DNA of 64,000 bases. Source: Bythopirellula sp. (GTDB lineage Bacteria > Planctomycetota > Planctomycetia > Pirellulales > Lacipirellulaceae). Both the position numbers and the translations under genes were made by a program. Positions 1 through 31,328 of this stretch are shown here, one piece after another. Position 1 is the first letter of the stretch. The number at the start of each line of letters is the position of its first letter. The stretch spans positions 1,280,350 through 1,344,349 of the forward strand of contig OZ245849.1 in NCBI GenBank assembly GCA_965228965.1. The letters are read 5' to 3'. The notes under the pieces are model-generated. The model saw nothing but the letters and a program-made list of their open reading frames with translations. It had not been told where the DNA came from and ran no database searches.

Positions 1-3000
1 CCATCGCTTCCAATTCCAGCTCATCAAATAGTGAGTCTCTGGATTCCCATCCAAGGTTCTCCTCGGAAACACCCACGGTTGACTCGAGAGTCTCATCGTC
101 GGTGGAGTTTCGCGCGGGCACGCGATAGTCGTTTCTCAGAACCCGGTCACGAACTGATTCGCGATAAGCGCTTCTCTCAAGAGTCGACTCTTCAATCAGC
201 GAATCAGGCAATGCTGAATCGATAGCGAGGAGCACTGCCGCATCTATTGCAATCAGCTCTGTTGGGCTGGTGGATCGCACTGCGGACGCAGCGGCAATAT
301 TCTCAGCAGTTGAGAAGGCGGCTTCCCCGGCAGCGAGACTCTGCAGCGCGCCTGTGCCATAGTCGGCTAGCCACTGACCTAAATCGTCGCTGTCGACGTC
401 GCCGTCGTTGTCGGCATCGCCATCGGCCTTGGTAGCATTGGGCGCCTGAATGCCAAACCCTCGCTGCCAGCTCAGGAAATCCGCGCCATCGACGTCGCCA
501 TCACCGTCGAAGTCGGCAGGTTCACCCGTTGCTAACAACTGGATGCCGAAGTTGACACCGCTGGTGGTCGAGCCGTTTAAGATCGTTTCGCGCTGCGCTC
601 GGTCGATCACGCGGTTTGCCAAGAACAACACCGACTCAGAGCCCAGTCCATTGGCAATAGCCAGGTCGAGAATCGGATCGTCGTCCAGCTGCGCCGCTAC
701 GATGCTCACTGCCAACGGGTTGGGTACCGCCGCCGACCCGGAAACCTCCGCTGTGAAACTGCCCGAACCGTCATTCCGCAGCAGCGTAAAACCTTCGTCA
801 CTGGCATTGGTCACGGCCAGATCAATGTCGCCATCGCCGTCTAGGTCCTCGGCGGTCAACGCCGTTGGCCCAAGTCCAGCTTCCGTGAACGATGGAAGGG
901 CAAAGTTTCCGGACTGATTGTTGACCAACAGTGCTACCTGGTTGGTTTCGGGTATGGTCGCCGCCAAATCCTGGAAACCGTCGCCATTGAAATCCCCGGC
1001 TACCACGGCGAACGGTCGACCGCCGACGTTCTTGGTGATTCGCGTGAACGACAAGCCTCCGTCGTTGAACAATGCACTCACCGTATTGGCGCCGGGAAAG
1101 AGGTCGACCCAGGCCAAGTCGAGGCGATCGGTGTCATCCACCACGAAATCACTGTTGTCGTCGGTAAGCTGCACGGTGATTAACGACGCTGGATCCTGGC
1201 CGTTGGCGATCGTCGGGGCCGGAGAAACGAACCCTGCTGGAATTCTCTCTAAGAATGAAACAATCGACTGGTTGACGTGCACGGTGACGATGTCGACATC
1301 GCCGTCTTGATCAAAGTCGCCTGGAGCGGTGAACCAGGGAGCGTACGGTGCAATGGCATCGGACCTCACGAAACCACCACTCTGGTTGTTCACCAACACC
1401 GACACAAAGTTCGTGCCCGCATAGCCGACGATCAGATCAACGTAGTCACCATCGTCGATTTGATCGTCGCTGTTGTCGTCGTCGAACTGCACAGCCTGAA
1501 TCGAAATCGGAGCCGCACCTACGTTAACGATCGTAGGAGCTTGGAAACCGCCTTGGCCATCGCCGAAAAAGACGGACAACGTTGTTTGACCAGCGTTGAC
1601 CACGGCAAGGTCTTGATTACCGTCGCGGTCGAAGTCGCCGCTGGCGATTGAGTTCGGCTGAGTTTGCGTTTCCAGGGAACTCGTGAGCGGTCGGTTGTCG
1701 ACGCCGGATGGTGAAGTTTGTGTGCCGTTGACCGGAACGACCACCCGCACGGCGTATTCCCCTGCGACCACGTTGTCAAACTGGTAGTCGCCATCCTGAT
1801 TGGTAACGTCCGTTGGTTCTCCGCCGTCGAGTTGACCGTTGTCGTTGAAGTCGAGGTACACCGTGACACCCGAGATCCCCAACTCGCCGGCGTCCTGATC
1901 GCCATCAGCGTTGATGTCGTTGAAAATCTGTCCGGCTAGATCTCCATTGCCGGAACCACCGATCCCTTCCTCGACATTGCCGAAATCGACACCAGTGCGT
2001 GACTCACCGGCATTCAGAAAGACGGTCTGGCTCTGATTTGCGGTTGGGAACGTCTGTACCCAACCCAGTTGGGGTACTTCGGCAATAGAGTAGGTGCGCT
2101 CGCTGGCCAAGTTCAGAAACTCGTAAGCGCCGTTGGTGTCGGTCACTACGAGTTGCTCGCCATCGTCGTGCTGCTGATTGTTGTTTTCGTCGAGGTAGAT
2201 CTCCCAGCCAGCGAGCCCAGGTTCGAACGGATCTTTAAATCCATCGCCGTTTAGATCGTGGAACTTCTGACCGCGGATCTCCCCAGGCAGTGCTCTAGCA
2301 CCAAAATCGATGTTTGAGAACGCGTCGCCCGTTCGGACGGTGACATTCCAGACGTCGACGCCGGGCACACCAAAGGCCGTTGCCTGGGACGCGGCGATCG
2401 GTCCATCGTCGGTTGAAGTCGCCGCCAAAGCGATTTGTCCATCGTCAGCTCCGCCTAGCGCAGCCAGGGCTCCTCCAGCCGAGACCTCGTAGGCACCAAT
2501 GTCGATCGTGGAGTTTTCAATGCGACTTTCGCCGCGCTGATCAGTCACGGGGGGCGATACTATCGCGCCATCTCCCACATCGATAGCTGGACTGCCATCC
2601 AGTAGCGAGTGTGTTTGTGTGGGGCCACCATTGTTCGCCAGTACCCCTAAAAGCGGGTCTAAAGGCGTACCGGAAGAACCAACTTGATCACCGGTGGCAG
2701 CAAACACGGCCCCATCATCGATCCCGATCAGATTGTATCCCTGCGAACTGAAGCCGCCCTGTATGTCTCGACCCCCACTCGTCGACGAATTGCCGGCGAT
2801 GATCGAGTGCGTGACACTGATGTCGGCACCGTAACTGGCAACACCGCCGCCAGCGCCATCGCCACTGTTGTTGGTAATCGTGCTATGCCTGATCGTTAGA
2901 TTGGCCACGTTGACAATGCCGCCGCCCAGCGACGTGGCCATATTCCCAGAAATCGTACTGGAGTCAATCGTAACCATACCGCCGTAAGAATAGATGCCAC

Positions 3001-6000
3001 CCCCGTTGTAGGCCATGTTGTTGGCAAGCGTGGTCCGAATCAAGTCTACCGTACCGCTGTAAGTAAATAGTCCGCCGCCGCCAGAGGAGGCAGAATTGGC
3101 AATATTGCCACTGAGCGTGGAGGCGGTTAGCGTGAGCGCACCACTCGCCTGGTAAATGGCGGCCCCCGATTCGTCAGCCGTGTTGCCGCTCGCTGCCACT
3201 CGCGTGAGCGATACAGTTCCGCCATCGTTGTAGATTGCGCCGCCGTCTTCCTCACCGGAAGCGGTCGCACTTCCACCTGTCAGCGTCAAATCAAGCAGGC
3301 TCAACGTCGCTCCCGAGGCGACATCGAAGAGACGGTCGATTCCCTGGGCGTCGATCGTCGTTTGTCCTGTGCCCGCACCAAAGATGGTGACGGACGTGGT
3401 CGCGGAAAACAGATCAAGGTCGCCGACCGTTGCGTTATTCGACTCGGTCCCTGTCAAGTTCAGCGTGTAGGTGAGCCCATCCAGCAGGATCGAAGTGATA
3501 CCCACCTGTTGATTAGCCTCCATGATCGCGGCCCGCAAACTCGTATTCCCGCTCGCGTCCAATGCCTGACCGTCGCCTGGGTTGGCATCAACAGTATCGG
3601 CCGTGGTGTTGACGATAAAGCCGCCGAAGAACTCGACCGAACCGATGTCCACGACAGCCGTCAGATTGTCGTCGCCGTCAAGGATTCGTCGCAAGTCGCG
3701 TTGGTCTTTTGGGCGTGCCTGCGTGTTGCTACCCGCGTCGATCAACGGGCTGCCGGCCATGGGGGCGTGGGTCAGTGTTGTGCCACCGTTGTCCTGCAAC
3801 GCACCCAGGAGCGGATCGATCGCACCGCTGCCGGCACTATCGCCAACCTGGTCGTCGTTAACCCCATCAACGAGCCCAGTTGCCGAGCCAATGTCGCCAA
3901 TCAGATTGTTGCCGAGCGAGACGAAACTGCCGGACACATCCACATCTGCGGTTGACGTGGATGAGTTGCCCGCGACCACGGTATTGAGCAAAGTTGCCGT
4001 TCCGGAGTTGACGTAAATGCCCCCAGCTTCGTCATCGGCCGTATTGTTGGTGATCGTCGAAGCCTCGACAGTCAAGCTGCCTGACTGCTGAAACACCGCG
4101 CCACCGCGCCGGTTGGATCCTGCAATAATCGAATTACCGGAGAAGGTGCTACTTGTGGCTGTGGCAGTCCCTTCGTTGTGCAGCCCGCCACCGTTACGGG
4201 CAACGTTGTTGGAGAAGGTGCTGTCGATAATGGTTACAGTTGCTGCGGCCAGATTCCGCAGACCACCACCATCGGAATTGGACATGTTGCCATCGATCGT
4301 TGCCGCCTCAATACGTACCGTGCCGCGGTTGAGGATGCCACCCCCGGCGGCATTGAGGCCTAGGCCGCTGCGGGTACCGCCAGTGATTGTGATCCCGCTG
4401 AAACCGGCAAACTGATCGGCGAGGACTTCAAACACGCGGTCGCCCAACCCGCTGGCGTCGATAATCGTAACGTCGGCACCGGCGCCCACGATACTCACGT
4501 GGTCAGTGATGTCGAGGTCGCCCGTGGCGGCAGCATTTTCACTCGCCCCTGACAGCGTGAGTGTATAAGTGCCTGGTCCGAGGGTGATCGTGTCGAACCC
4601 AGCCGAGGCATTGGCTTCTTGAATCGCAGCACGCAGAGAAGTTAGTCCGCCGGCATCCTGTGCCACGCCATCTCCGGGGGTGGCATCGACCGAATCGGTC
4701 GTCGTGTTCACGACAAACGTTGTTCCGCCTAAGTCGACTTCCACGGCACCGACGTCGATGGTTGCCACGCCGTCGGGTTCGCCATCGAGAACACGAGTAG
4801 TGCCACGCTGATCGGTGGCGGGTACACCGGTGCTATTGCCTGCATCAATGGCCGGACTGCCAGATTGGGGCACGTGTGTTTGCGTTGGACCGCCGTTGTC
4901 TTGCAGGGGGCCGAGCAGCGGATCGATGGGCGATAAGTCATCACCGACTTGGTCGCCGTTGACTCCGTCGGCGAGGCCGGTGGCATCACCGACATCGCCG
5001 ATAAGGTTGTTTCCTTCCGAGTTGAAGGCTCCCACCACATCCGAGCCATCGTCGTCCGACTGATTGCCTGCCACGATCGTGCTATTTAACTCGAGCGTCC
5101 CGCCTGCAGAAACGAAAATCCCACCGCCGTAGTAGCCGACGGGGCCCACGCGGCGGGCAAAGATTCCTTGGTCGTCGCCAGGTCCGTTTCCATCCCACAC
5201 GATGAAGCCGGATCCATCAGCGGCGACTGCAATATCGCCATCCTTTTGATCACCGGCAGTAGTCTGGCTGATTATCTCAGCTGCAGTGACGGGTTTCGCC
5301 TGCGCATTGTACTGTCGTACGTAAACATCTTGATCGCTTGCCCCATCAGCCTGAGCCGACCACGCAATCGCAAATCCGCCATTTGGAAGCGGCGCAATTG
5401 TCGGTGACATCCAGACCGTATCGGTAGATTGGAAAACCACGAACTCGTCGCCAATAGGAGTGCCCAACCGATCGAACTGCCGACCTCTGATCGAAGCCCC
5501 GCTCTCCCTCCACACCGCGACAAATCCAGAGTCGAGTGTGTAAATGGCGGTATCGAATAGAGGTGGTCCGGTGGATGCCTTTAGCTGAACGTCTCCTGTA
5601 AGCGCATTTAATGACGAGTCGAAAACGCGGGCTTCAATCGCACTCTGTTCGGACCAAACGACCACAAAGCCGCCATCGCTCCACAATCCAACGTCTTGTC
5701 TCAGCTGATTACCTGAAGAGTCGAGATTGGCTCGAACTTCGCCAGTAAGTGCGATTGCATCCAAGTCATACTGGCGGGCATACACGTCGCCAGGTGCACC
5801 AGGACTATCATGGATAACCACGTAACCGTTATCGGCAGCCGCCAGTTGTACCGAGGTTTGATTTCCTGCCTGCGTTTCATTCACTCGAAATGTGGACGTT
5901 GTCGAACCACTGAAGTCGGAATAATGCCATGCCCGAATTCCTACGCCATCGTTGTCGATCCCAGTACCGGCGAAGGCGATGATATGTGAGCCATCTGGCG

Positions 6001-9000
6001 CTACAGATACGGCGGGACGGTGGCGCCTGTTTGCCGATGCGTTGTTGACACGGAAATTTTCTCCGCTAAGAGATCCGTTTGGAAGGAATCGTTGCGCATA
6101 GACATCTTGGTCCTCGGTTCCTGATTCACCACCGTCCCAGGCGATTATTGAGTGGCCACTCGCATTCGTGCTGACATCTGCGAAGTCCTGCGTCCCTGTC
6201 GTGCCATCGTTGACTTTGAACTCGTTCCCAATTGGCTGGAGTTGCCTAAACGCACCAACTCCGGCAGCTGCATTGTCCGCAATCGTCGAGTTAGCAATAC
6301 TGGCCGTCGCAGTGGCCGTGCTAAAGAATCCACCTCCTTCCGCTGTTGCCGAGTTACCGCTCAGCGTGCTACTTCTGACCATCGCGGCACCATTGTTGTA
6401 AATTCCGCCGCCCGAGTCGGCACTATTTCCGCTGACGGTGCTACTATCTACGGTGAGCGTACCCAAGTTGGCTATGCCGCCGCCATTCAGAGCGAACTGT
6501 GCTGTATTGAACAGCAAGTTGACGGCACCTACATCTCGATTTGCAACGACCAGGTCGAGCCAGCCGTCACCATCAAAATCGGCCAGATCATTCTTGAAGG
6601 CGTCGTCTCCGACTTCAAATCTCTGTGGGCTTCTAAAGGTGCCATTGCCCAGACCTAGAAGTATGTGTATCGCTCCGTCGTCGAATGCCGACACGATCAA
6701 ATCTAGTGCACCGTCCCGATCGATATCGCCAGCTACGATATCACTCAGGATGGAGGGAGAAGCGGTCTCGATAGGAATAAGCGTCGCCGCCTGGAAACTC
6801 CCATCACCGTTACCCAAACGAAGGCTTATGGTTTGGGTCGTCGATCGACTAACAACTAAATCGAGATTTCCGTCTTCATTGAAATCTTCCAGCAGCACAA
6901 AACCGGCGTCATCCGCTTCAGGAATGGTCTCAGAGACACTGAATTGGAACGTCTCCGGGCCGCCTGACTGCTGACCAAACAGGACCGTGACACTTTCGCC
7001 TGCTTGATTACCTACCACAGCATCGAGCAGTGCATCACCGTTCAAAAAACCCAGTGCGACAGAACTAGAATTCGTATCGACGTTGTTGCTAGTGACCGTC
7101 GGAGCAGAACCTGGGTTGATCAACAGTAACAATAGACCCTGTGATGCACTGAAACCATTGGCTGCGACAATGTCTTCAACGCCGTCTCCGTTAACGTCCA
7201 CCAGTTCAAAGTCATTAAACTCTGTTCCAAAAGAGGCAAGCGGTACGGGCTCGACCGAAAAATTGCCGTTTCCATCGCCTGATAGGACTCGAATATCACC
7301 ACTTCCACCTCCGCCGGAACCATGAGTAACGACAATATCCGGATTCCCGTCACCGGTCACATCGGAATGCAGTCGAGCGCCTGACGGGCGGTTGCCGAGT
7401 CCCGGGATAACGGTTGGAGTAAAGACGCCCTGTCCATCATTGCGGAAAACGGTAATGCTCGCGTCGTCATAATTGGGCGCAATGAAGTCAATGTCTCCGT
7501 CGCCATCAATGTCGCCTGGTGATACTCCGTACGTTCCTCCACTCGCGGGATCGTATTCCTGTCTAGCAGCAAACAGCGTGTTCGGTCCAAACGACTGATT
7601 GTTGGATAGCGTAGATCGCGTAACGGTGGCAACAGCTCCGGTACTGTTATAGATTCCGCCTCCTGCTGCCCGCTCGGCGATATTGCCGTCAACCACGGCG
7701 CTGTCAACGTTCAGCATGCCACTGTTGCGGATACCTCCTCCAGGAGCACCATTGCTATTTCCACCTTGAAGGCTGATGAACGAAACCGACAAGCTTCCGC
7801 CAGCTAATACGTCTACCACACGATCCAATTCTGCCGCATCGACGATCGTCACATCAGCGCCGCTGCCCACAAGCGTGATGTTGGCTGTGATGTCTAGGTC
7901 GCCTGTGGCCGCCAGGTCTTCCTGTATGCCAGCAATGGATAGTCCATAAGTTCCAGGCGGCAAGGCAATCGTCTGCGCACCGCCCAAGGCGTTCGCTTCC
8001 ATCACGGCTGCTCGCAGTGATGTGTTGCCATTGGCATCGATCGCCAGGCCGTCACCAGGGTTGATGTCGACTGTGTCAAGCGTGGTGTTGACCAGGAAAC
8101 CATCCAGCACCTCAACCGCACCAACGTCCGCAGTGGCGGTCTGATCACCGTCGCCATCGAGTATTCGCGGCACACCGCGCTGATCAACCGCGGAAGTGGT
8201 GGAATTGTTGCCTGCATCGATCGCCGGACTACCAGATTGTGGCACGTGTGTTTGCGTTGGACCACCGTTGTCTTGAAGAGGGCCCAGCAGCGGATCGATG
8301 GGCGACATTGCCGTCCCGACTTGATCACCGTTGACTCCGTCGGTGAGACCCGTCGCGTTGCCCACCTCGCCAATCAGGTTGCCCGCGAGAGAAGTAAACC
8401 CGCCCACGATGTCGGGGGCATTGTTCCCCACCGCATTAGCCGCTACTAGGGTGTTTTGCAGATTGACTGTACCGCCATCGGCGTTGTAGATCCCGTTTGC
8501 AAACTCCAGCGGCGTCTGGAAGCGCCGCGCATAGATCCCTACCGCATCGGTATCGCCATTACCGTGCCAGACGACGACGGCATTGCCATCAGCGTCGAGA
8601 TCGACTCGCGAGAAAAACTGTCCCACTTCGGCTGTTGTCGGGACGATGAATTCATCGCCAAGCGGATTACCATCCGCGTCGAATGCCCTAGCGTAGATGA
8701 CGTCACTTACGGCCTCCGACCAAGTAACGACGAACTGACCGCGTCGATTCATGCCCACGTCCGACGTGCCGTGGTCGCCGATGCTGTTTTGATTGACCTG
8801 GAATTCGTCACTGAGTGGGTTGCCGGACAGATCAAACCGACGCGCGAAGACGTCCGAATTGCCATCGACGTGTCGCGTGCCCCAGCTAATCACGACCTGG
8901 TCGGCATTCATTTCGACCGATGGAACCGTTTGATTATCGTTGGTGGCGTTGTTCACGCGAAATTCTGATCCACGCGGCGAACCGTCGACGTTGTACAGCT

Positions 9001-12000
9001 GCGCATAGATCCCCGAGAGCGATCCATCCTGGCCGTCGCGGTCTTCCCAGACCACGATCGACTCGCCGCTGGCGTTCATGGCAGCCGTCAAGCGCTCCTG
9101 CCGACCGGCGGTGGTCGTGTTCACAGTAAGCGGCCCGGCGATGGTACTGTCGACAACGTCGTACCAACGGGCCCGCGCCGCAGAATCGCTTCCGTCGGCA
9201 CTGGAGTCCTCGTCTTGCCAGGCAACCAGCAGGTTGCCATCGTCTGCCAATGCAGACCAGGGCATTCTCTGCTGTCCGGTGACACTTGTGTTGACCGAGA
9301 AGGCGCTCGTCAACGGCGTGCCGTCAGACGCGAAGCGGCGGGCGAACACGTCGAAGAGGTTACCACCATTCCCACCCCCGTATGCGACGACGAAGTCGCC
9401 ACTGTCATTTATGCTGACATTCGGAAATAGTCGATTCTCGGCACTGCCTGGCGAGATTTGAAATACAGGACCGAGCGTCCCGCTGTCCGCGGAATAGATC
9501 CGCCCAAAGATCTCGTTTGCCTGGCCGGTATGGCCACTCTCCCAGGCGACGACGTACTGTCCGTCCTCGTTCATAGCCAGGTGGGCTTGCTGCTGCGATG
9601 AGTTTACTGTCGCATTGACGCGAAACTCGTCGCCGTCCGGCTCAAGGAACGTTGCGGCTGTCAGTCCCGAGACGGAGTTATCGGTCACAGTCGTGCTAGT
9701 AATGTTTGCGACAGCCGTGGCAGAGTTATAGATGGCCCCCGCTTGGGTCGTGGCTGCGTTCCCGCTGAAAGTACTGTTGGTGATCGTGGCGGTGCCATCA
9801 TTCCAGAGACCGCCACCCGCGTCGGCGTTGTTAGTACTGATCGTACTGGCGTCGATCGTAACGTCGCCAAAGTTGGCTACGCCACCGCCGACGGGAGTAA
9901 CAGGCGCGCTGAATGTGCGTGCGAATATTCCATCTGGATCACCTGGTCCATTGCCAAACCACGTCGACCAAATCTTGTCGGCGCTACTGGCCGCCATTCG
10001 AATTCGGCTCTGCGCTAAAGCAGTTGTCTCATTGACCAAGAACTCGGGCCCAGTTGGCTGGCCCGCGGAATCTAGGCGCCTGGCAAACACATCTTGCTCA
10101 TCGTCGGTGACCCAAATGCGCCAGCTAAGAAGAAACCCTCCATCATCGAGCGCCGTCAGGTGCGGGACCGTATTTTTCTGCGCTGTGGTAGAAACCACCA
10201 CGATTTCACCGCCCACTGGGTTACCCATCAAGTCGAAACGCTGTCCCAGCACATCAAAGCCATTTCCCCCGGCAGGTGCACTCTCCCAGATAACTAAGAA
10301 TCCATCGTCGGTAGCAGCGACATTTGAGAACGCCTGATACGGCAAGCCAGCCAATGTTTCTACTGGAGATGTATTGACTGTGATTTCAGCGTTGATGCCT
10401 CCCAGCAGACTGCCGGACGCATCGAAACGAGAGACGTAGATCGCGTCGATGGGATCACTCGTTGTAAGTCCTGAATGACTCTGCCAACTGACGTAAAAGC
10501 TGCCGTCATCGGCCATAGCTACATCTGGGCTTACCTGCATATTGGTTGTAGTTGAGTTGATCAAGAACTCACTGCCCAGAGGATTCCCATTTGAGTCGTA
10601 TCGCCTGGCAAACACATCGTACGTAGCACTGGCTCCACCATCTCGATCAACCCAAACGACGACAAACTTTCCATCAGCTGCCATGCTAATCGTTGGCCGC
10701 GTCTGATCGCCGACCGAGGTCGTGTTGACCTGAGTAGGCGCACCGAGGGGCGTGCCACCGGCATCATAGCGCTGCAACAATATCCCAGCACCGTCGCCAT
10801 CGCCTTCCGCATCAATTCCGTACCAGACCACAGCAAATCGACCGGAATCGTCGATCGCCACGCGTTGATCTTCTTTCGTGCCAGTCGCAGGCGAGACAAT
10901 GATTTCTGAACCCACAGATTGCCCAGTTGCATCATAACGCTGCGCACGAATGGAACGCTGATCGGGAGCATCGTTCTCGAAGCTGGTCCAGGTAACTACG
11001 GTCTGGCCAGCGTCGTTTGTAGCGACGTCCGGGTTGTACTCCATGCCCGCGTCACTGGTATTAATCAGGAACTCAGCGGAGGCATCCGTTAGAAATCCAG
11101 CGCTGGCAGACGCCAGATTGTCGCGAACAGACGACGCCAGAAGTTGAAGTGTGCCGAGATTGCGAACGCCGCCACCTTCGGTAACGGTTGCGCCACCCGT
11201 AACCGTAACGCTCGACAGCGTAAGACTTCCCCCACTGCGCACATCGAACACCCGGTCGATCTGCGCCGCATCAATGGTCGTTTGATCGGCACCATTCCCG
11301 ACAATCGTGATCTCCGCGGTGACATCCAAGTCACCGGTAGCAGCAAGGTCTTCCCCGACGCCCAGGATCGTCAGCGTATACGTGCCAGACGCCAGGATGA
11401 TCGAGTGCGATCCACCCAGGGCGTTGGCTTCCATGATGGCGGCGCGCAAACTAGTGTTGCCTGCGCCGTCCTGAGCCACACCGTCGCCCGGGTTAGCATC
11501 GACGGTGTCCAGCGTGCTGTTGACCAGAAAACCGGCGACAAACTCCACGGCACCAATATCGATCGTTGCCGCCTGATCGCCATTGCCGTCTAAAACGCGG
11601 GGAGCTCCGCGCTGATCGGTGACCAGAGAACCGGCGCTGCCACCTGCGTCAATCGCTGGGCTGCCGGCAAGCGGAGTATGGGTCAACGTCGTACCGCCGT
11701 TGTCGGCGAGCGGACCTAGCAGCGGATCAATAACGCCGCTGCCTGCGCTGTCACCGACCAAGTCGCCGTTCACTCCGTCGCTAAGACCCGTGGCCGTGCC
11801 GATGTCGCCGATCAAGTTGTTGCCCAGCGAAGTGAAGTTGAGTCCCGCCAGGTCCGCTCCACTCGAACCGGTGTTCGCTGCGACAATCGTATTCTGCAGT
11901 GACACGCTCGCACCGACGTCAAGTCGTTCGATGCCTCCACCGGCACCGGTCGCCGAATTGGCGGTTATCGTGCTACTCGTCGCGATCAAGGTGCCCTGGA

Positions 12001-15000
12001 CACTAAAACCGCCGCCTTGAGTCGAAGAATTTCCCGATACCGTGCTATTGTCCAACGTGAGGGTGGTTGCGCCGTTGAGAAAGACGCCGCCGCCGGTGCT
12101 CGTTGTCGAATTGTTGGAAATCGTACTCGCTGTCACTTCGACCGTCCCAGAATTGACGCTTATGCCACCACCACTAAGAGCCATGTTGTTGTCGATAGTG
12201 CTTTCAACGATTGTCGTCTGGGCCGAAAAATCGTTGTGAAGACCACCGCCGATGTTGGTCGACGTGTTGTTGCGAATATCGACTCGAGTCAGTGAAGTCA
12301 GACCGCCAGAGATGGAGATGCCGCCACCTCTACTCGTGGCGTTGTTCATACTGAAAGTCGAATCAACAATCGTCACGGTTCCGCTATGAATCAGCAATCC
12401 ACCGCCATCGTCCGCGCTTCCGCCCGTAACCGTTAGGCCACTGAAGTCAACGATTGCGCTATTCAGAACTTCAAACACGCGATCGAGGCCCGCTGCATCG
12501 ATAGTCGTTGATGAAGCGCCTGCACCGATGAACTCGATATTGGCCGTAATATCGAGGTCACCCGTTGCAGCTAAGTCTTCGCTTGCCCCGGCAATCGACA
12601 GCGCGTAGGTCTCAGCACTCAATAGAATCTTGTGCGTGCCGCCCAGCGCGTTGGCCTCCATGATTGCCGCACGCAAACTTGTGTTGCCAGAAACATCCGA
12701 CGCAACTCCATCGCCGAGGTTGACGTCGGGCGTGTCGGAAGTGGTGTTCACAATAAAACCATCGAACACCTCAACGGCACCGATGTCGAACTGTGCGAGC
12801 CCATCATCGTCTCCGTCGAGTGGTCGTGGATTGCGACGTTGGTCGTCAGCTGGAGCACCATTACTTGTGCCCGCATCGATTGCTGGGCTGCCCGTCAGCG
12901 GAAGGTGGGTTTCAGTTCGACCGCCGTTGTCAGTTAACGGCCCCAACATCGCGTTGACTACGCCGCTCCCCGCGCTGTCGCCGACAATGTCGCCGTTCAC
13001 GCCATCGGTAAGCCCCGTCGCCGAACCGATATCGCCGATTAGGTTGCTGCCACCGGAAGTGAACGGACCAACCACATCGGCGTCGCTTGCCGTGCCGGTG
13101 TTGCCGGCGACAATCGTGTTGACTAGCGTAAAGGCACCACTGCCGGTCGAGATGCCGCCGCCCGTGGTCGCCGTGTTCTCGGTGATGGTAACGTTGGTGA
13201 GCGTGACATCGTCGGAGTTAATTTTGATCGCACCGCCTGGGCCGTTGGATTGGTTGCCTGAGAAGGTGCTGTTGGTGATGATCAGCGGCCCACTGGCCAT
13301 GATCCCGCCGCCATAGGTCGTAGCCGTGTTGCCTGAGATCGTGCTGCCGCTGATGGTTGCCAGGTGATTCTGCGTGCGAATACCTCCGCCAAAGCCACCT
13401 GAATTGCCGGAGATTGTCGAATCGATGATCGTTGCCGGTCGATTGGCTTCGATACCACCCCCACCGATGTTGCCGGAGATGATGCTCCGCGTGATCGTCA
13501 ACGCGCCTGAAGCGCCACCGACGCTGATTCCGCCGCCCGTGCTGTTGATGATCGACGAGTCGGACAGCGTAACCGGGCCACTGGGGTTGAATACCAGGAT
13601 AGTGCGCTGCCCCGCGTCGGTGTTGATGTTGCCATCAAACGTGCTACCGGTGATCGTCACGACTGGCGAGGTGGAATCGTCGATGTCGAGCGCCGCACCA
13701 TACGGTGCCTGATTCGTTCGAAAGACGCTTCCTGAAATGATTAGTTCGCCACCATCAAGGCTAATTGCTCCGCCAAACTGGTCGGAGGAATTGTTCTCGA
13801 AAGTGCTATTCGAAATATCTATGGTCGATCGAAAGCCACTGATGGCTCCGCCTGGCCCTCCGACCGAACTGTTGCCCACTACCTCCACAGTATTCAAAAC
13901 CAAAGTCTGGCCGTTGCCGACCTTGATGGCACCACCGTCGGCGACAGATCCATCCGTAAGTGTCAGGTTTTGAAGTGTGAGCGTTCCGCCCGCCCGGACG
14001 TCAAATAGGCGATCGAGCGTGTTGGCGTCAATTGTGGTGACGCCCGGACCGGCTCCGACAATGGTGATGACACTAGTCACGTCGAGATCACCGGTGAGTG
14101 TTGCGTCTTCACCGGTGCCGGCAATCGTTAGTCCATAGGTGCCGGCTGACAGCTGAATGGTGTCGTCGCCGGGCAGCGCGTTGGCTTCCATCACGGCGGC
14201 ACGCAAGGTTGCATTTCCCGCATTGTCTTCGACAATTCCATCCCCCGGAGTGACATCGAGTGAGTCGCTCGTGCTGTTGACCACCAAATTGATGGGACCC
14301 GCAACGGCAATGGCCGCCGCAAACTCAGAAGTGTTTCCACCAGGATCAGTAGCCGTCGCGGAAATGAATTCCCCTAACACTGTGCCTGCAGGCAATAGCA
14401 GATCGAAGCTGGCGTTACCTGAACTGTCGGTGGTAACATCCCTGGATGCAAGGAACCGTTCGGCTTCGCCATGCCCAGCGGCGTTGGCTGAAGAGTTGGC
14501 GTAGAAATCGATTGCAAAGGTGGTATCCGCTGCGCTGTTGATTGTGCCAACGATTTGAGTATCTACCCCGTCGGTACGGGCTGACGAGAACACCGGATAG
14601 TTTTGTAGATTATTCGGTCCCGTATCCACATCGTTCAGATCGTTGTTCGTGACGCCGTTGTCCCCCAGATCGATGGGAATGCCCCCATTGGTATCGCTGG
14701 CGAAGATCTGATTGAGCCGGAACAGATTCCCAGTCCCAGTCCCATCGAGACGAATTCCCTGCTGCGTGTTATACGCGATGATATTCGCCTCAACGTTGTC
14801 GCGCGTTCCATCCACGTCGGATCCGATCCGATTCCCCGAGCCGGATACCACCACACCAGTGAAGATCCCCGAGGCGCCATTGCCCATCGCCCCGGTTCCG
14901 GTTGCATCGACGCCGATAAAGTTGCCTGCCACAATATTGTTGCCGCCGGACGTCATGCGAATGCCTTCGCGACCATTTCCAGAGACGATGTTCCGCTCTT

Positions 15001-18000
15001 CTGTGTCCGACGTGCCGTCCGCATCGGTACCAATTCGGTTGCCCGTGCCGTTCAGCAAAACGCCCGCGCCGAGATTGCCCAGTGCGACCAATCCGGTAAC
15101 GTCGGTGCCGATTCGATTCCCTGCCAGGGTATTGTTGTCACCGTCTAGGTCGACGGCATGCGTCGCATTTGGGGTACCGGAGCCACCAAAGCCACCCGAG
15201 ATGAGATTCCCTTCGACATTGTCGGAGACACCATCACCGTCGGTACCAATGCGATTGTTATCGCCGAGGATCCTGACGCCTCGGCTCTGATTTCCCGTTC
15301 CGATGATTGTGGAACCCGTGAGATCGGTACCAATAAAGTTTCCAGCAATGGTGTTGCCGTTGGCAGATACGAAGACTCCCGCCGCATTACCGGAAATCAG
15401 ATTGCGCTCCTGCTGGTCATTGATGCCGTTGCCATCGGTCCCCACGAAATTCAGCGTTCCGCTGGCGATGTGCACTCCGAAGCCCAGCGACGTCACTGCC
15501 TGGGTGCCCGTTAGATCTGTCCCAATGAAATTTCCCTGAATTCGATTGTTATTGCCGCCTACCGATATGTTTGCCAGGCTGCTGCCTGAGATGATGTTGC
15601 GTGCGTCCGGAGATGGGCCCCCCAGCAGATTGTTGTCGGATTGAATCGACAGACCTTGTTGTGTTCCACCGGGGTGAGACGATCCGCTAATATCGGTGCC
15701 CAAGAAGTTTCCTTCCAGGACGTTACCGGCACCGACACGTATGTCGATCGCCTGACCTTCGAAACGATTGATCACCAAACCACGGATCTTGCTGCCACCG
15801 GCATCGATGAACAATCCGTCGGCGTTCGCACCCGCATTGGTTCCGTCCAGTTCGATCATCAAGACGGCGTTGCTGGCCTGATCGATCAGATTCGTATTCG
15901 GACTGGCACCCGACTGCGAGTAGCCATCGATGGTCAAAGGATCGGAAATCGTGGGGAGCTGCGTCAACGGCTGGATAGTGTGCGGACCCGCTCCGCCAAT
16001 CGCAAACTCGATCACATCGAGTCCGGGATTGTTGTTTGCATCGATGATCGCCTGACGCAGTGAACCAGCCCCGCTGTCGTTGGTGTTGGTCACCAGCAGC
16101 GCGGTGGCTGACACATCAGGGCTCGTCTGCTCCCATCCGTCCTGCAAGATAAGGCGCACACTGTAGGTCAGCCCCGGCACGACCCCACCGATCGTGTAGC
16201 TGCCATCGCTGGCTGTTACGGCCGACGGCTCGCCCGCGTCGAATTGCCCGTTGTCGTTCACGTCGACATAGATCGTCCATCCTTCCAGCGGCGGTTCGCC
16301 GCCGTCTTGTACACTATTGCCATCAAGATCGTGAAAATGCACACCGCTGATCGTGCCGTAGAATCGTTCGACTGCCCCGATGTCGACTTGCGTAGTGGAA
16401 TCGTCATTGCCGTCTTGTGGACGCGCCACCAGACGTTGATCGGTGGCCGGCGCACCAATATCGTCACCGGCATCAATCGCCGGGCTGCCTGGCAACGGCA
16501 CATGGGTGAGCGTCGTACCCGTGTTGTCTTGCAGGGGCGATAACAGCGGATCGATTTCTGATCCGTTCGATCCAACCAAGTCGCCTGTTCCTACTCCGAA
16601 CCCCGTTGCTGAACCCCCGTCGCCGATCAGATTGTTGTTTAGGGACGTAAATGCTCCCGCCACGTCCGGATCAGTTGCTGCCGTGTTGGCCGCGACGATC
16701 GTATTGTGCAAGCTCGCAACACCGCCGGCATGGCGGATTCCTCCGCCCGTCTGCGCGTCGTTGAGTGTGAAAGTGGAACTCACTACGGTTGCGGAACCGG
16801 CAGACATATGGAGCCCGCCACCGTCGCCAGTTGCCGTGTTCGTCGAAACCGTGGTATTCGTGAGCAGCAGCGTAGACACACTGGCAATTGCACCACCGTC
16901 CGTCCCCGCCTGATTGCCAGACAGCGTGGTACGTGAAATTTCGACATCGCCGCCGACGGCAACCGCAATTCCACCCCCCAGTCCACTCGCCTGGCTACTG
17001 ACGACTGCGCTATCACTTAGCGTCAAAGACGCGCCGTCGACCAGCAGCGCACCGCCATCGCCAGTGACCATGCCACCGGAAATGGTCACTCCCGACAGGA
17101 CGACTGTCACGCCTGGACGCAGATCGAACACTCGATCGAGGCTCGCAGCGTCGATGATGGTCTGGTCCGCCCCAGCCCCGACGATGGTCAGCGTTCCAAC
17201 CGTATCGGTGATATCCAAGTCGCCCGTCGCAGCCAAGTCTTCGCTAGCCCCGCCAAGGCTGAGCGAAAAGGTGCCGGACGCGAGAAAAATGGTGTTGTCA
17301 CCTACTTGAGCATTCGACTCTTGGATTGCGGCGCGGAGGGTAGTTGCTCCCGACGCATCAACGGCGTTTCCATCCCCTGGATTTGCGTCGACCGTGTCGG
17401 CGAATGCATCGACGAAGAACTCACCCGGATTGCTGAGGTCAACGGCGAACGAACCGATGACCGTGCCAGCTGACAAATTGCCCTCGGTGTCGCTTACTTG
17501 ACCTGAAACCAGCGCTATCTCGTAGTCGCCGTTGTCTAGCGTATCCCACGTGCCTCCAGGTGGTTGCATTTCGTACTGCGCTACGCGTACGGGACCGTTG
17601 CTGCCAACATCAACTGAGGCAAAAGTCGCGGTAAACGTCACACCGCTCCCATCGAGCCTCGTGACGATGACATCCAGGTCGTCGAGCGTGCTTACGTCCA
17701 CGCCCGTTGTATCCCTGTATTCGATCGTGATCGTCTGCGGAGTCGTCCCTGTGAGCGTGATATCGAGTGCGCTGTTCAGCGTTGGTTGGGGCGCGAACGT
17801 ATCGGTTTGTAGCGCCCCTAGGGCGCTAAGCCTGCCATCCGACACGACCTTGTCTTGAAATACCGGCAGCGACTCTGCACCTGATAAGATTGCGGCCTTC
17901 ACTTCGGCCGACGTTGCGCCCTCGTTCTGCGAATACAACAGGGCTGCGACACCCGCGACGTGTGGGGCCGCCATACTCGTGCCGCTTCGCACTCCGGTGA

Positions 18001-19420
18001 CATCTCCGATTTCCGTACTCAGGATCCCGACGCCCGGCGCTGCAATGTCTACCGTGGTCTCACCGAAGTTACTAAACCGCGCAATTCCATCGATTCGATC
18101 AGAGGCGGCCACGCTGATGATCGAGTCAAATCCATAGTTGGCCGGATAAAAGGGCAGATTGTCATTGTCCACGCCGCCGAAAATGTTGCCGTTACCTGCT
18201 GCTGCCACGAAAAATATGTCCGCCGCGTCACTAGCCGCAATTGCTTGTTGCAATGCAAAGTTGAAGGTGTTTCCACCCCAACTATTGTTCATCACGCGCA
18301 AATTAACCGGATCAACCGACCGCGTTCTCATCATCGTTGCGTAGTTGATCGCTTCGATCGCATCCGAAGTGAATCCAACATTGTTCTCGCCGAGGAACTT
18401 GAGCGGCATGATCGAGGTGTCCCACGCCACACCTGTGACATCGATGCCGTTGTTCCCTACCGCACCCAGAGTCCCAGCGACGTGGGTGCCGTGGCCATGG
18501 TCGTCCATCGGACTGTTATCTTCGTTGCGAAAGTCCCAGCCGAATAGATCATCCACGAAGCCATTGCCATCGTTGTCCACGCTGTCGACCCAATTGGGGT
18601 CGAGCAACAGATCACTCGCATCGATGACATTGTCGAGGTTGGAGTCCACGACCTCACTGGCGTTCGCCCCGTCGAGCTGCAGGTCCGCAAACGTGATGAC
18701 CATGTCGGCATCGGTATCCACGATCCCAGCAGGAATCTCACCCGGATTGATCCAAATGTTGTTCGCCAAATCCTGATGGTTGAGATCGATGCCAGTATCG
18801 AGCACCGCTGCGACGATCTCAGGACTGCCAGTGGTGATGTCCCATGCCAGTGCCGCATCAATGTCAGCGCCTGGTACACCGCCTTCTAATCCTTCGTTGT
18901 TCAAGCCCACCAGCAGATCACTCTGGTACGAAGGGTCGCTAGGTGTCGCTTGTGCGGTGAGTGTGGTATCACGCTCGAAGTAAGCCAACAGCTCAGAGGT
19001 AGACAACCAAGCTTGTGCCTCTGTGCGATGAGTCGTTGGTGTCGCGACCAACAGTTGTCCGGGCAAACCCAATCCGCGCGTCACCTGGACCGGAGCATTG
19101 TCGTCGTCGAACAATGCCATCACGTCGGAGATCGATGTGCTCTGGGCAATCGCTTCGGGTGTGAGTCGGATAATCCAACGGTCGGTCGACGTGGACTCGC
19201 TCGTGGTTTCCGGGTCATTCGCACCAACGTCACCCAGCGCGCCGATCGGGGATTCCTCAGCCTGTCCAAACCATTGGGGGCTAACTTGGTCGTACGTCGT
19301 CAACGAAGAGCTGGACAGAACCAGACGGGCTTCCAGTTGCTCGATGTGCAGTTGACGCGTTTGGGTTGAACCCGTCACTTCAACGGACCGATTGCGCCAG
19401 CGTTTCTTTTGAGGTGCCAT
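1..19420 (-). CDS. Giant multidomain secreted/cell-surface protein. 5' end complete; 3' end lies beyond the left window edge (6,473 codons in window). Contains an N-terminal S8 subtilase, repeated parallel-beta-helix modules, three 7x repeat arrays, FG-GAP/VCBS arrays, SdrD-B-like folds and dockerin-like loops.
   Basis: ATG at 19420-19418 with GGAG 9 nt upstream. In-frame upstream stop at 19633-19631, and the only other upstream start is a TTG at 19474. I hand-translated the minus frame (codon first base = 1 mod 3) and it stays in frame and protein-like at 19420, 18797, 18491, 17975, 8975, 4860, 2599, 514, 418 and 4. The ORF track lists no ORF in this frame between 1 and 19420. The other two minus frames hold only ORFs of 140 aa or less. 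This is the expected pattern if the frame has no stop codon in the window. Confidence 0.9.
356..514 (-). other. Two dockerin-like / EF-hand-like Ca-binding loops
   Basis: Checked codon by codon: [21 protein letters not shown] (514-452) and [21 protein letters not shown] (418-356). The reading frame continues past position 1 (...[12 protein letters not shown]). Confidence 0.7.
650..1660 (-). repeat. Second FG-GAP/VCBS-type repeat array
   Basis: [18 protein letters not shown] (about 1600-1650), [45 protein letters not shown] (about 820-870) and [17 protein letters not shown] (about 650-700). Confidence 0.65.
1720..2290 (-). other. Two tandem SdrD-B-like folds
   Basis: [41 protein letters not shown].. 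([20 protein letters not shown] checked at 2220-2161), then [42 protein letters not shown]... Confidence 0.6.
5147..6223 (-). repeat. Array C: 7 tandem ~55-aa repeats of the same family
   Basis: Starts [11 protein letters not shown] at 6223 and ends QGIFARRV at 5170-5147. 7 units counted. Confidence 0.55.
6530..7560 (-). repeat. FG-GAP/VCBS-type repeat array (integrin-alpha-like propeller)
   Basis: Repeated Ca-loop motifs: [12 protein letters not shown] (about 7500), [53 protein letters not shown] and [14 protein letters not shown] (about 6545-6590). Confidence 0.7.
8515..9628 (-). repeat. Array B: 7 tandem ~55-aa repeats of the same family
   Basis: Starts [11 protein letters not shown] at 9628. 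One unit checked codon by codon: [12 protein letters not shown] at 8977-8942. Ends GIYARRFQ at 8538-8515. 7 units counted. Confidence 0.6.
9905..11074 (-). repeat. Array A: 7 tandem ~55-aa repeats (EF.VN..T.G.Q..P.VA....G.FVV.W......DG...G[IV]FARR[FY]D..G.P.G), probably a 7-bladed beta-propeller
   Basis: Hand translation starts [29 protein letters not shown] at 11074 and ends GIFARTFS at about 9908-9931. I counted 7 units. Confidence 0.6.
14530..16000 (-). repeat. Short-period parallel-beta-helix (PbH1-like) repeats of the form N-x-I-x-G-N-F-I-G-T-D-x-x-G
   Basis: Example: 15360-15301 translates as [19 protein letters not shown]. The same N.I.GN.IGTD pattern recurs about every 22-25 aa through this stretch. 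The block ends with an ...[13 protein letters not shown]... type segment near 14300-14530. Confidence 0.6.
16130..16400 (-). other. SdrD-B-like / Cna-B-like Ig fold
   Basis: [54 protein letters not shown].. (the [20 protein letters not shown] part was checked at 16260-16201). Confidence 0.6.
17900..18900 (-). other. Subtilisin-like serine peptidase (S8) domain of the giant protein, with an intact catalytic triad
   Basis: Hand translation gives [15 protein letters not shown] (Asp codon 18799-18797), [15 protein letters not shown] (His codon 18493-18491) and [14 protein letters not shown] (Ser codon 17977-17975). VMNNSWGG lies between them near 18290. Order and spacing are typical of subtilases. 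Confidence 0.85.
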
Positions 19421-19721
19421 CCTTAATGTCTCCCCAACGGTGTCCAGACAAGAGAAGCGTGGCGGGTTGGGCAACGCCCAGTCGCGCAGTATAGCTGCGT
19501 TGACTGCGGAAATCCAGAATATTGGCTGCTGTCGACCTGGGAAACACGTTACAGCGACACCAGAATCGTAGCGTGGGCGGCGCTCGACTCGGGTCAGCTC
19601 GTCAGCACAGCAGCGGCAATCCGCACGAGCTCACAAATGGAAGGAAGAGAACTTCCGTTCGTCGACTTTCGGGAGGTTCTCGTTTGACTACCTTGCGAAC
19701 ACCCGTGTCGACTTCGACGAT

Positions 19722-26659: not shown

Positions 26660-27271
26660 ATGACCATTCCCAAGTCACACCGGAAACGAGTACGCCACTT
26701 CGACAAGCGTGGCGAAATTCACGAACTAACATTTTCGTGCTACCAGCGACGACAACTGTTGGAAAACGATTGGCGACGGGAACAGCTTAGCCAGGCGATC
26801 GATCGGGCCATGCGGAATCATCACTGGAGGTTAACGGCATTCGTGTACATGCCCGAGCACGTGCACTTGCTTGTCTATCCGGTTGCTAAAGATCCGAAAA
26901 TCAAGGATCTCCTGTTTGCCATTAAGCGGCCCTTCAGCTTTCGAGTCAAGCAGAGAATGATCGAGTTAAACGATCCACTAGCTGACCAGTTGTCGATTCG
27001 TCAGCGTCCCGGCAAAGCTACGTTCCGTTTTTGGCAGGAAGGGCCGGGTTACGACCGAAACATTTGGTCCGCGAAAGCTCTTCACGCGGCAATCGATTAC
27101 ATTCATATGAATCCAGTTCGTCGCGGGCTCGTCGATCGAGTGGTCGATTACCGTTGGTCGAGCGCACGCTGGTATCATTCCGACGGACGGTTGGAAGACC
27201 CATTGCTGCCGACGTTGTCTGCGGTTCCGCTCGATTGGTTTGGCGGTTCCGCTGATGTCACCAGTTATTGA
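26660..27271 (+). CDS. REP-associated tyrosine transposase (RayT-like, IS200/IS605 Y1 HUH superfamily)
   Basis: 203-aa ORF with HUH motif (PEHVHLLVYP) and the Tyr helix AIDYIHMNPVRRGLV. Flanked by inverted REP hairpins. Confidence 0.8.
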   Translation: MTIPKSHRKRVRHFDKRGEIHELTFSCYQRRQLLENDWRREQLSQAIDRAMRNHHWRLTAFVYMPEHVHLLVYPVAKDPKIKDLLFAIKRPFSFRVKQRMIELNDPLADQLSIRQRPGKATFRFWQEGPGYDRNIWSAKALHAAIDYIHMNPVRRGLVDRVVDYRWSSARWYHSDGRLEDPLLPTLSAVPLDWFGGSADVTSY

Positions 27272-31187: not shown

Positions 31188-31328
31188 GGCGGTTGAATTG
31201 TGAAAGGTGAAGAGTGAAAAGTGAAAACGGTTCCATTCCCCTCCCTTGCAGGGAGGGGCTAGGGGAGGGGAGAGCCGCCTGGTAGTTCTCCCTCACCTAA
31301 CCTCTCCCGACAGCGGAGAGGAACATGA

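Follow-up and report, generated by a model that had tools for sequence, protein, structure and literature searches.

A 19.4-kb Planctomycete Gene Specifying a Modular Giant Protein with an N-Terminal Subtilase and a Predicted Cell-Surface Location

The 64-kb stretch of Bythopirellula DNA analysed here (the window) carries at its left end a genuine, intact gene with a 19.4-kb open reading frame. Its product of about 6,500 residues is, with a probability of roughly 0.7, an extracellular, calcium-binding multidomain protein that is associated with the cell surface. Judged by their predicted products, the neighbouring genes (DUF1501, PSCyt2/PSD1 and STK-TPR) place it on a planctomycete chromosome. 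Translated on the minus strand, the frame that opens with the ATG at nt 19420 runs for 6,473 codons to nt 2 without a stop, as claimed in a preliminary description of this DNA, and is unfinished at the window edge. The remaining five frames of nt 1–19420 contain 125, 136, 210, 262 and 319 stops, while base composition predicts about 241 for the frame of the giant gene (log10 P of no stop, about −106). The GC content by codon position (GC1/2/3) is coding-like throughout, and domain matches span the ORF end to end in a single frame, so that no frameshift needs to be invoked. The region looks ORF-poor because the ORF lister drops frames that run off the window; its output for nt 1–19420 consists only of ORFs of ≤228 aa, in agreement with the earlier attribution of the omission to the absent stop.

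The nearest in-frame stop 5′ of the ATG is at about nt 19630, 70 codons above. The predicted start at nt 19420 is supported by the N-terminus of the closest homologue (MASQKR, compared with MAPQKKR in the giant protein) and by a GGAG/AAGG stretch directly upstream. At the other end, the homologue L081 terminates 61 aa past the position aligned with residue 6421, which suggests that some 10–20 codons lie beyond the window edge.

That the long frame is an assembly artefact, in which collapsed or chimeric repeats have joined what are really several smaller genes, is very improbable. Such a reading could draw on the modular nature of the protein, with its eight related modules, and on the fact that L081, the sole close relative, is represented by nine consecutive gene calls. 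The internal repeats are, however, old. The best DNA repeat pairs are 80–83% identical over merely 123–174 nt, no tandem arrays were found among the internal DNA repeats, and paralogous modules share 45–69% identity as proteins and ≤83% as DNA. Repeat-driven misassembly is unlikely because these sequences have diverged much too far to confuse an assembler, and a chimera would rarely leave 19.4 kb open in one frame (P ~1e-106). The order of segments is also collinear with that of L081, an independent relative, whose fragmentation fits its 2.23x coverage: the pieces lie in different frames, yet follow one another without gaps in homology.

The unusual N-terminal leader (aa 1–52, nt 19265–19420; this and all following features are on the minus strand) has a basic stretch and the motif LEARLVLS, which is of the LExRxLL type, followed by VSPQWF. 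A hydrophobic core, and with it a classical signal peptide, is absent from this leader. The NCBIfam LEPR-XLL model scored 12.5 bits, below its cut-off of 17, and the LExRxLL motif is present in 88 of 120 S8 homologues. The segment that follows (aa 80–160, nt 18941–19183) is kept in the N-termini of homologues and is a putative propeptide; Pfam I9 was not found in it, nor was any Pfam family matched within aa 1–200. The preliminary description had proposed an apparently active protease, and a Peptidase S8 (subtilase) catalytic domain is indeed found at aa 202–518 (nt 17867–18817; PF00082, 165 bits) with a complete triad of Asp208 (DTG), His310 (HGTH) and Ser482 (GTSMA), apparently in active form. 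Its best solved relative is deseasin MCP-01 of Pseudoalteromonas, a collagenolytic subtilase (3VV3, E 8e-83), with which the catalytic Asp, His and Ser motifs align. MCP-01 itself is small and secreted, with a single PKD domain, whereas the giant protein adds a 48-aa acidic Asp-His insert (aa 231–278) and around 6,000 residues of C-terminal modules.

Planctomycete S8 peptidases with the LExRxLL leader (e.g., P0001, P0266, P0280 and P0335, named 'S8 family serine peptidase' or 'LEPR-XLL domain-containing protein') share the head of the giant protein, comprising the leader, propeptide-like segment, S8 domain, post-S8 domain, first beta-helix and an SdrD_B-like domain. Over these roughly 1,100 aa the giant protein shows 42–60% identity to P0266, P0280, P0335 and L081. 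Among the matches listed (proteins up to about 1.75 times the query length, many of them partial) these relatives measure 0.8–3.5 kaa, in contrast to the giant protein, which has some 3,000 extra residues through module duplication and propeller insertions. L081, at about 3,500 residues, has its segments in the order of the giant protein and falls short of it by about 3,000 aa. The gene probably grew by old internal duplications of the beta-helix module, starting from an ancestor with about 3,500 residues that resembled L081.

The protease is followed by eight beta-helix modules (M1–M8), predicted to be right-handed; seven of them are homologous to Rhombotarget A (RbtA), with a choice-of-anchor Q domain at the end of each. 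The Pfam families matched in the protein as a whole included Peptidase_S8, Beta_helix, FG-GAP and SdrD_B; NCBIfam choice_anch_Q scored 133–209 bits in each third of the sequence, and CSLREA_Nterm was also matched. M1 (aa 668–1018, nt 16367–17419) has a SLRAAI start, PbH1-type rungs and a choice-of-anchor Q end, and was delimited by phmmer with M4 together with both NCBIfam models. M4 (aa 2218–2626, nt 11543–12769) is uninterrupted and served as the reference module. Its AF2 model is a right-handed beta-helix (pLDDT 91.4, pTM 0.93), and the best PDB match is RbtA (9CDV/9CDU; Foldseek E 1e-7, profile E 1.4e-13). M3 (aa 1712–2217, nt 12770–14287) was recognised by Pfam, NCBIfam and phmmer, and M7 (aa 4902–5263, nt 3632–4717) and M8 (aa 5265–5644, nt 2489–3628) by NCBIfam and phmmer. 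The exception is M2 (about aa 1120–1710, nt 14291–16063), a predicted divergent beta-helix variant with GNxIGTDxxG rungs, a further 10-residue motif and a terminal Ig-like part; it gave a weak Pfam Beta_helix match (E 0.006), no sequence match in the PDB and, by phmmer, no paralogue within the giant protein.

Two modules are interrupted. Super-module M5 (aa 2629–3770, nt 8111–11536) is a single beta-helix module in three collinear pieces with two propellers inserted: by phmmer, residues 3–152, 198–277 and 279–409 of M4 match aa 2629–2778, 3176–3254 and 3643–3770. Super-module M6 (aa 3771–4894, nt 4739–8110; phmmer) carries its two insertions, an FG-GAP propeller and propeller C, at the points where M5 is split, and M5 and M6 are the most alike of all module pairs (61% and 66% identity). 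RbtA of Acinetobacter baumannii, which bears a GlyGly-CTERM signal, has an N-terminal beta-helix that is 18–22% identical to the RbtA-like modules. It and the CSLREA/choice-of-anchor Q proteins have the same CSLREA-type start and choice-of-anchor Q end, although the giant's version of the start lacks the Cys and reads TSLRAA. RbtA is a single-module cell-surface protein of 617 aa (PMC12643943), compared with seven such modules in tandem here, two of them interrupted by propellers.

The protein has five beta-propellers, three (A, B and C) of one seven-blade family and two of the FG-GAP type, and four of the five lie inside M5 and M6. Propeller A (aa 2776–3185, nt 9866–11095) is seven-bladed, with a repeat of about 55 aa (EFxVN..Q..PxVA....GxFVVVW) and an AF2 model of pLDDT 85 and pTM 0.89. 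Propeller B (aa 3258–3645, nt 8486–9649) is 32% identical to A, and propeller C (aa 4393–4768, nt 5117–6244) lies in M6 and belongs to the same family; B and C were recognised by repeat alignment and phmmer. No Pfam model and no sequence-level PDB match were found for this family, which has 74,465 relatives, many of them in multi-copy proteins of 3–8 kaa. The best fold match to the predicted propeller A is the C-terminal domain of CylK, of the CylK-type or 'PDIAV motif' propellers (7RON, TM 0.68, 11% identity). Matches to NCBIfam PDIAV_lipo and the LIC12048 lipoprotein were weak and far under the cut-off (38 vs 90 bits). No function can be transferred to the propellers. The FG-GAP/VCBS propeller of M6 (aa 3945–4310, nt 6491–7588) was matched by Pfam FG-GAP_3 and FG-GAP, with boundaries set by phmmer.

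Three Ig-type domains of the SdrD_B kind are placed as spacers among the modules: one SdrD_B/GEVED-like copy at aa 1022–1119 (nt 16064–16357; phmmer with an SdrD_B copy E 1e-19, weak GEVED match) and two at aa 5712–5908 (nt 1697–2287; Pfam SdrD_B, 80 bits in two stretches, and phmmer). The thousands of adhesin-like and propeller residues announced in the preliminary description are thereby mapped, by HMMs and models, to beta-helix, Ig-like and propeller modules. The C-terminal FG-GAP propeller (aa 5905–6275, nt 596–1708; FG-GAP_3, 137 bits) is 52–67% identical to that of L081. Beyond it are a dockerin-like double calcium loop of two 13-residue segments (aa 6300–6350, nt 371–523), which scored 20.7 bits with Pfam Dockerin_1, just under the cut-off of 22.9, and gave EF-hand hints and a match to NCBIfam dockerin_GC (E 0.014), and an acidic tail (aa 6351–6473, nt 2–370), aligned with L081 and cut by the window edge.

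The composition of the very acidic protein has an extracellular character, with 0 Cys, 0.4% Lys, 9.3% Asp and 13.9% Gly, and none of the 6,473 residues in the window falls in a hydrophobic stretch of transmembrane grade. Together with the acidic tail, the missing signal peptide and the HemolysinCabind repeats of some family members (e.g., P0335), this could point to an RTX-like giant adhesin secreted by a type I system, C-terminus first through ABC/MFP/TolC and retained by its N-terminal part. That reading is unlikely, as the RTX nonapeptide (PF00353) was not matched in the protein and no ABC, HlyD or TolC genes, nor any other secretion-system genes, were found in the 64-kb window; the C-terminus of the protein lies outside it. 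There is similarly a small chance that the protein is a polysaccharide-degrading array, in which the beta-helices would be lyases or hydrolases and the propellers catalytic domains of the sialidase or lyase type. The fold matches of M4 include pectate lyase Pel9A, alginate epimerases and phage tailspike depolymerases, and those of the modelled propeller include sialidases and PL24/PL42-type lyases; the earlier term 'carbohydrate-active-like' is thus weakly supported, by resemblance in fold. These matches are at 10–15% identity, with E-values for the beta-helices of 1e-5 or worse except for RbtA, and no CAZyme family was matched in Pfam or NCBIfam. The best propeller match, CylK, is an alkylating enzyme, and RbtA, the best relative at sequence level, has no known enzymatic activity (PMC12643943). 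A self-processing polyprotein, in which the S8 protease cuts at module borders to free beta-helix and propeller proteins, is quite improbable. In its favour are the cis fusion of the protease to repeated modules, which have a conserved DIGAVE motif at their ends, and the fact that subtilases normally autoprocess their own propeptide; yet there is no sign of cleavage sites, the choice-of-anchor Q fold explains the conserved module ends, and the fused head is likewise retained in shorter relatives.

From its sequence, the product is most likely a secreted, calcium-dependent surface fibre that carries a protease and binding modules. The protein would be exported and held at the cell surface by its dockerin-like end or its tail, and the array of beta-helices, Ig-like domains and propellers would form a rigid fibre tens of nanometres long, which may bind polymers or surfaces. 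The N-terminal protease, either positioned at the distal end or close to it or freed by propeptide autoprocessing, would digest proteinaceous substrates.

Dockerin-type giant proteins of 30,000 aa or more, whose C-terminal parts include transmembrane and SecA-like regions, have been described in Omnitrophota (West-Roberts et al. 2023 preprint). They resemble the present protein in being repetitive, calcium-binding and dockerin-bearing, with a proposed role in attachment, but the planctomycete protein is of about 6,500 aa, lacks a transmembrane segment and has another domain set. In a recent survey, 5–10 kaa formed the lowest size bin, and 'large' began at 10,000 aa. The preliminary description regarded the size as exceptional and the gene as the clearest candidate for new biology in the window, a view that is not borne out within the phylum. 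A 2016 survey of 29 planctomycete genomes recorded genes >5 kb in every one and genes >20 kb in half, with a maximum of 36,239 bp (PMC5177795). Like those, the present gene exceeds 5 kb and has a predicted repetitive product of the surface/adhesion type with many poorly annotated modules; with its 19.4 kb it ranks upper-middle among the known sizes, although its module order is not described there. Its module types, without exception, have been catalogued before or are very widespread. The size and make-up of the gene are routine for planctomycetes, and rather than new biology it represents a large member of an established class.

The left end of the window holds an intact giant gene, whose product combines surface-protein modules, arranged in arrays, with a protease domain that retains every catalytic motif. 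On the minus strand, the frame that starts at ATG 19420 and reaches base 2 contains 6,473 codons with no stops, as the preliminary description had claimed; the five alternative frames of nt 1–19420 have 125–319 stops each. About 241 stops would be expected in this frame from base composition, corresponding to a probability of chance openness of ~1e-106, and GC by codon position is coding-like in all 400-codon blocks and resembles that of the neighbouring genes. The region had looked empty because the ORF track leaves out frames running off the window, an explanation that was already offered and is correct: the longest entry listed between 1 and 19420 is 228 aa. For annotation, this means that a single gene takes up 30% of the window and that tracks without edge-truncated frames conceal genes of this kind.

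Sequence comparison gives good support for a start at ATG 19420. The frame stays open for 70 further codons upstream, none of them Met, the ATG is preceded by a GGAG/AAGG stretch, and the predicted start (MAPQKKR) resembles that of the closest homologue (MASQKR). Upstream of the ORF, the search found no sigma-70-like promoter and only a weak terminator-like hairpin at 19656–19643, between the upstream gene and the giant ORF, a picture that is not informative for this phylum. The 3′ end can be placed approximately from the closest collinear relative, encoded on contig L081. The product of that gene ends 61 residues past the position aligned with residue 6421 of the giant protein (numbered from the ATG at 19420), and the window retains 52 residues past it, so the stop codon probably lies ~10–20 codons outside the window. 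The open frame is at least 19,419 nt long, with 6,473 aa visible and ~6,490 aa expected.

The main caveat raised in the preliminary description was that repeats had been collapsed or chimerically joined into a single frame by misassembly. This now appears very improbable. The best internal DNA repeat pairs of the gene are 123–174 nt long and only 80–83% identical, indicating that the repeats are old, Tandem Repeats Finder returned nothing relevant for the gene, and amino acid identity between paralogous modules is just 45–69%. In addition, segments of the gene recur in unchanged order on L081, an independent ENA contig with 2.23x coverage. The relative on this contig (nt 10001–20507) is split into nine consecutive gene calls of 851, 714, 363, 324, 199, 247, 203, 188 and 377 aa, and homology to the giant protein continues across the frame changes. 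Breaks of this type are expected of frameshift errors at such low coverage, and on sequence grounds the nine calls are best read as one gene of ~3,500 aa fragmented by sequencing errors. The case illustrates that giant genes can stay hidden in low-coverage assemblies.

The protein begins with a leader (aa 1–52) in which a basic stretch precedes LEARLVLS and VSPQWF; the leader lacks the hydrophobic core of a signal peptide. The LEPR-XLL model (NCBIfam NF012209) matches at aa 24–36 below its cut-off (12.5 bits vs. 17, E 0.089), and the motif occurs at the same place in 88 of 120 S8 homologues. A propeptide-like segment (aa 80–160) is conserved in homologues; Pfam returned no match within aa 1–200, including any to I9-type propeptides. 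The Peptidase_S8 domain (PF00082, aa 202–518) scores 165.3 bits (cut-off 21.8) and presents the catalytic triad in the order Asp208-His310-Ser482 within DTG, HGTH and GTSMA motifs, with a 48-residue acidic insert between the Asp and the His. By both profile and triad motifs, it belongs to the subtilase family. Its closest solved structure is deseasin MCP-01 (E 8e-83), with which the catalytic motifs align, including AAAGN with the oxyanion Asn.

Much of the remaining protein is made up of eight beta-helix modules (M1–M8). Five of these (M1, M3, M4, M7 and M8) are uninterrupted and 350–506 aa each, while M2 (in the region aa 1100–1710) is a divergent variant that gave no match to PDB sequences. 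All modules except M2 have a CSLREA-type start and a choice-of-anchor Q end. The choice-of-anchor Q model (NF041518) exceeds its cut-off of 25 bits in each of three overlapping thirds of the protein (133.6, 205.9 and 209.3 bits; two to three stretches per third), and there are seven DIGAVE-type ends in all. CSLREA (TIGR04214) scores 37.4 and 32.8 bits (cut-off 25), and its eponymous Cys is replaced in every module, the motif reading TSLRAA, since the giant protein contains no cysteine (13.9% Gly, 9.3% Asp, 0.4% Lys and 0 Cys in 6,473 residues). Modelling of M4 from an alignment of the paralogues in the window and trimmed homologous modules gave a right-handed beta-helix (pLDDT 91.4, pTM 0.93), the best PDB matches of which were two entries of Rhombotarget A (RbtA) from Acinetobacter baumannii (Foldseek E 1.2e-7, TM 0.52, 18–22% identity). 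The relationship is also detected by sequence profile (alignment A3 vs. 9CDU, E 1.4e-13), and the beta-helix domain is homologous to the Rhombotarget A family. Pel9A pectate lyase, alginate epimerases and phage tailspikes gave much weaker fold scores than RbtA.

The two super-modules, M5 and M6, are interrupted copies of the same unit. M5 (1,142 aa) is one beta-helix module in three pieces with two propellers between them: in a search with M4, its positions 3–152, 198–277 and 279–409 matched aa 2629–2778, 3176–3254 and 3643–3770 of the giant protein. M6 (1,124 aa) is split where M5 is, by an FG-GAP propeller and a third propeller. This interruption of a beta-helix by whole propellers at the same two turns is the one less ordinary feature of the protein. 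Propellers A (nt 9866–11095) and B (nt 8486–9649) of M5 and C (nt 5117–6244) of M6, all on the minus strand, belong to one family, in which a block of ~400 aa is made up of seven ~55-aa repeats (alignment A1) with the consensus EFxVN..Q..PxVA....GxFVVVW..QDG...G.FAQRYD. The predicted structure of this block is an all-beta propeller (pLDDT 85, pTM 0.89), with the CylK propeller as the best fold match (TM 0.68, 11% identity) and sialidases and lyases ranking next. The propeller profile found no match among PDB sequences, Pfam has no model for the family, and the NCBIfam matches (PDIAV_lipo, LIC12048) are sub-threshold. Among 1.84 billion cluster representatives, a profile search found the propeller in 74,465 proteins. 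Of these, 26,491 reach E 1e-30 or better, and many of the proteins are 3–8 kaa in length and have several copies. The seven-bladed propeller family could merit its own entry as a new domain family. GC3 falls to 0.51–0.55 in the blocks containing propeller A, the inserted FG-GAP propeller and propeller C (aa 2801–3200 and 4001–4800; window ~9820–11020 and 5020–7420), compared with 0.59–0.69 for the majority of the remaining ORF blocks and 0.63–0.79 for neighbouring genes, a dip which may hint at a distinct history of the inserted domains.

The C-terminal part comprises two SdrD_B domains, an FG-GAP propeller, a dockerin-like pair of calcium loops and an acidic tail; its last 763 aa gave no match to PDB sequences. 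Across the protein, FG-GAP/VCBS repeats are well recognised (PF13517, 99.2 and 137.5 bits vs. a cut-off of 26.9; PF01839, 39–42 bits vs. 22.1), as is SdrD_B (PF17210), which scores 80.4 bits (cut-off 29.7) in two stretches and has a third copy at aa 1022–1119 detected by phmmer. Dockerin type I (PF00404) falls below its cut-off (20.7 bits vs. 22.9), with two DxDxDG loops present at aa 6303–6315 and 6335–6347. The visible tail (aa 6351–6473) is acidic and not hydrophobic, the true C-terminus lying outside the window, and no hydrophobic window of transmembrane grade occurs anywhere in the giant protein.

Searches with the N-terminal 700 aa returned S8 proteins in their thousands, predominantly planctomycete, with a best identity of 58% among the matches listed. 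The homologues listed extended only to 1,211 aa for this query, 718 aa for a 410-aa query and 3,206 aa for a query of 1,833 aa, or ~1.75 times the query length, so that longer homologues of a short segment would go unlisted. A head of ~1,100 aa (leader, S8, M1 and an SdrD_B-like domain) is common, at 42–60% identity, to several large planctomycete proteins: P0266, P0280, P0335 and the L081 product. The L081 gene is collinear with aa 5–1142, 3178–3798 and 4925–6421 of the giant protein, and the ~3,000 residues without a counterpart correspond to M2–M4, M6 and a portion of M5, suggesting that the gene grew through module duplication. The C-terminal 400 aa found only FG-GAP-level matches (27–42% identity) among genome contigs, and the head region found only module-level relatives (≤46% identity, ORFs of 0.5–2 kaa) among metagenome contigs.

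Read as a surface protein, the product would be exported with neither a classical signal peptide nor any type I hallmark, and the 64-kb window contains no secretion-system genes. The dockerin-like end or the tail may hold the protein at the cell surface as a long calcium-stabilised fibre, along which beta-helix, Ig and propeller modules would bind polymers or surfaces, with the N-terminal protease acting at the distal end or being freed by autoprocessing of the propeptide. Against a type-I-secreted adhesin of the RTX kind, the giant protein has no match to HemolysinCabind (PF00353), and ABC, MFP and TolC genes are absent from the window. Reading the modules as a polysaccharide-degrading array draws on their likeness to carbohydrate-active enzymes, which is at fold level only, and for a polyprotein that cleaves itself with its own protease no evidence was found. 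A PKS/NRPS identity was rejected, such domains being absent. The surface-protein reading leaves room for a more speculative proposal: that in M5 and M6 the RbtA-like helix may close up again around the insertions and present a pair of adjacent propellers, which would jointly form a site for binding or catalysis. With the LExRxLL leader and the lack of a signal peptide, such a scaffold may belong to an uncharacterised export/display system found specifically in the giant surface proteins of planctomycetes. This is unlikely, although if true, the nested-propeller scaffold and the leader would mean something mechanistically new.

The other genes of the window are those of an ordinary chromosome, specifying a Ser/Thr kinase with TPRs, a UvrA-like protein, a P450 and beta-oxidation proteins. 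A TonB-dependent-receptor-like outer-membrane barrel (807 aa, nt 19722–22145, minus strand) lies 301 bp upstream of the giant gene on the same strand; this adjacency is probably incidental because it is absent beside the L081 relative. An IS200-like (Y1 transposase) ORF (nt 26660–27271) and a full-length IS5-family transposase (528 bits, nt 55345–56718) are also present. An origin of the giant gene from a mobile element or phage was rejected, as there are no tRNAs in the window, the flanks are ordinary chromosome and GC is uniform. Adjoining DUF1501 and PSCyt2/PSD1 (DUF1549/DUF1553) genes (nt 29919–33137, minus strand), a signature pair of Planctomycetota, support the taxonomic assignment. An 840-aa ORF with DUF11-type repeats (TIGR01451; nt 56959–59481, minus strand) is a probable further surface protein, and a 352-aa ORF on the opposite strand is possibly spurious. 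Rhombosortase, the partner of the C-terminal GlyGly-CTERM sorting signal of the Rhombotarget A family, was not seen among the genes of the window.

Genes of this size are a recognised trait of the Planctomycetota. All 29 planctomycete genomes surveyed in 2016 have genes >5 kb and 15 have genes >20 kb, the largest being 36,239 bp (PMC5177795). The present gene exceeds the >5 kb criterion of Reva and Tummler, as cited in PMC5177795. In the 2023 survey of West-Roberts et al., proteins of 5–10 kaa form the lowest bin and those of at least 10,000 aa are frequent in PVC phyla, including Planctomycetota; with 6,473 residues seen, the giant protein falls short of the 'large' (≥10,000 aa) and 'giant' (≥30,000 aa) classes of that study. 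Its module types are likewise all known: S8, CSLREA, choice-of-anchor Q, FG-GAP, SdrD_B and dockerin-like modules are catalogued, and the propeller is extremely common. The expectation that the gene represents new biology is therefore not upheld. Among the giant surface proteins of planctomycetes, a class that is poorly understood, it is a large and well-resolved addition, with a clean domain map of protease head, RbtA-like beta-helix modules and split modules with propellers. It also highlights a seven-bladed propeller family that numbers tens of thousands of members and lacks a Pfam model. Current understanding is unchanged by this example, which provides a concrete list of constructs for studies of how planctomycetes build their surfaces.
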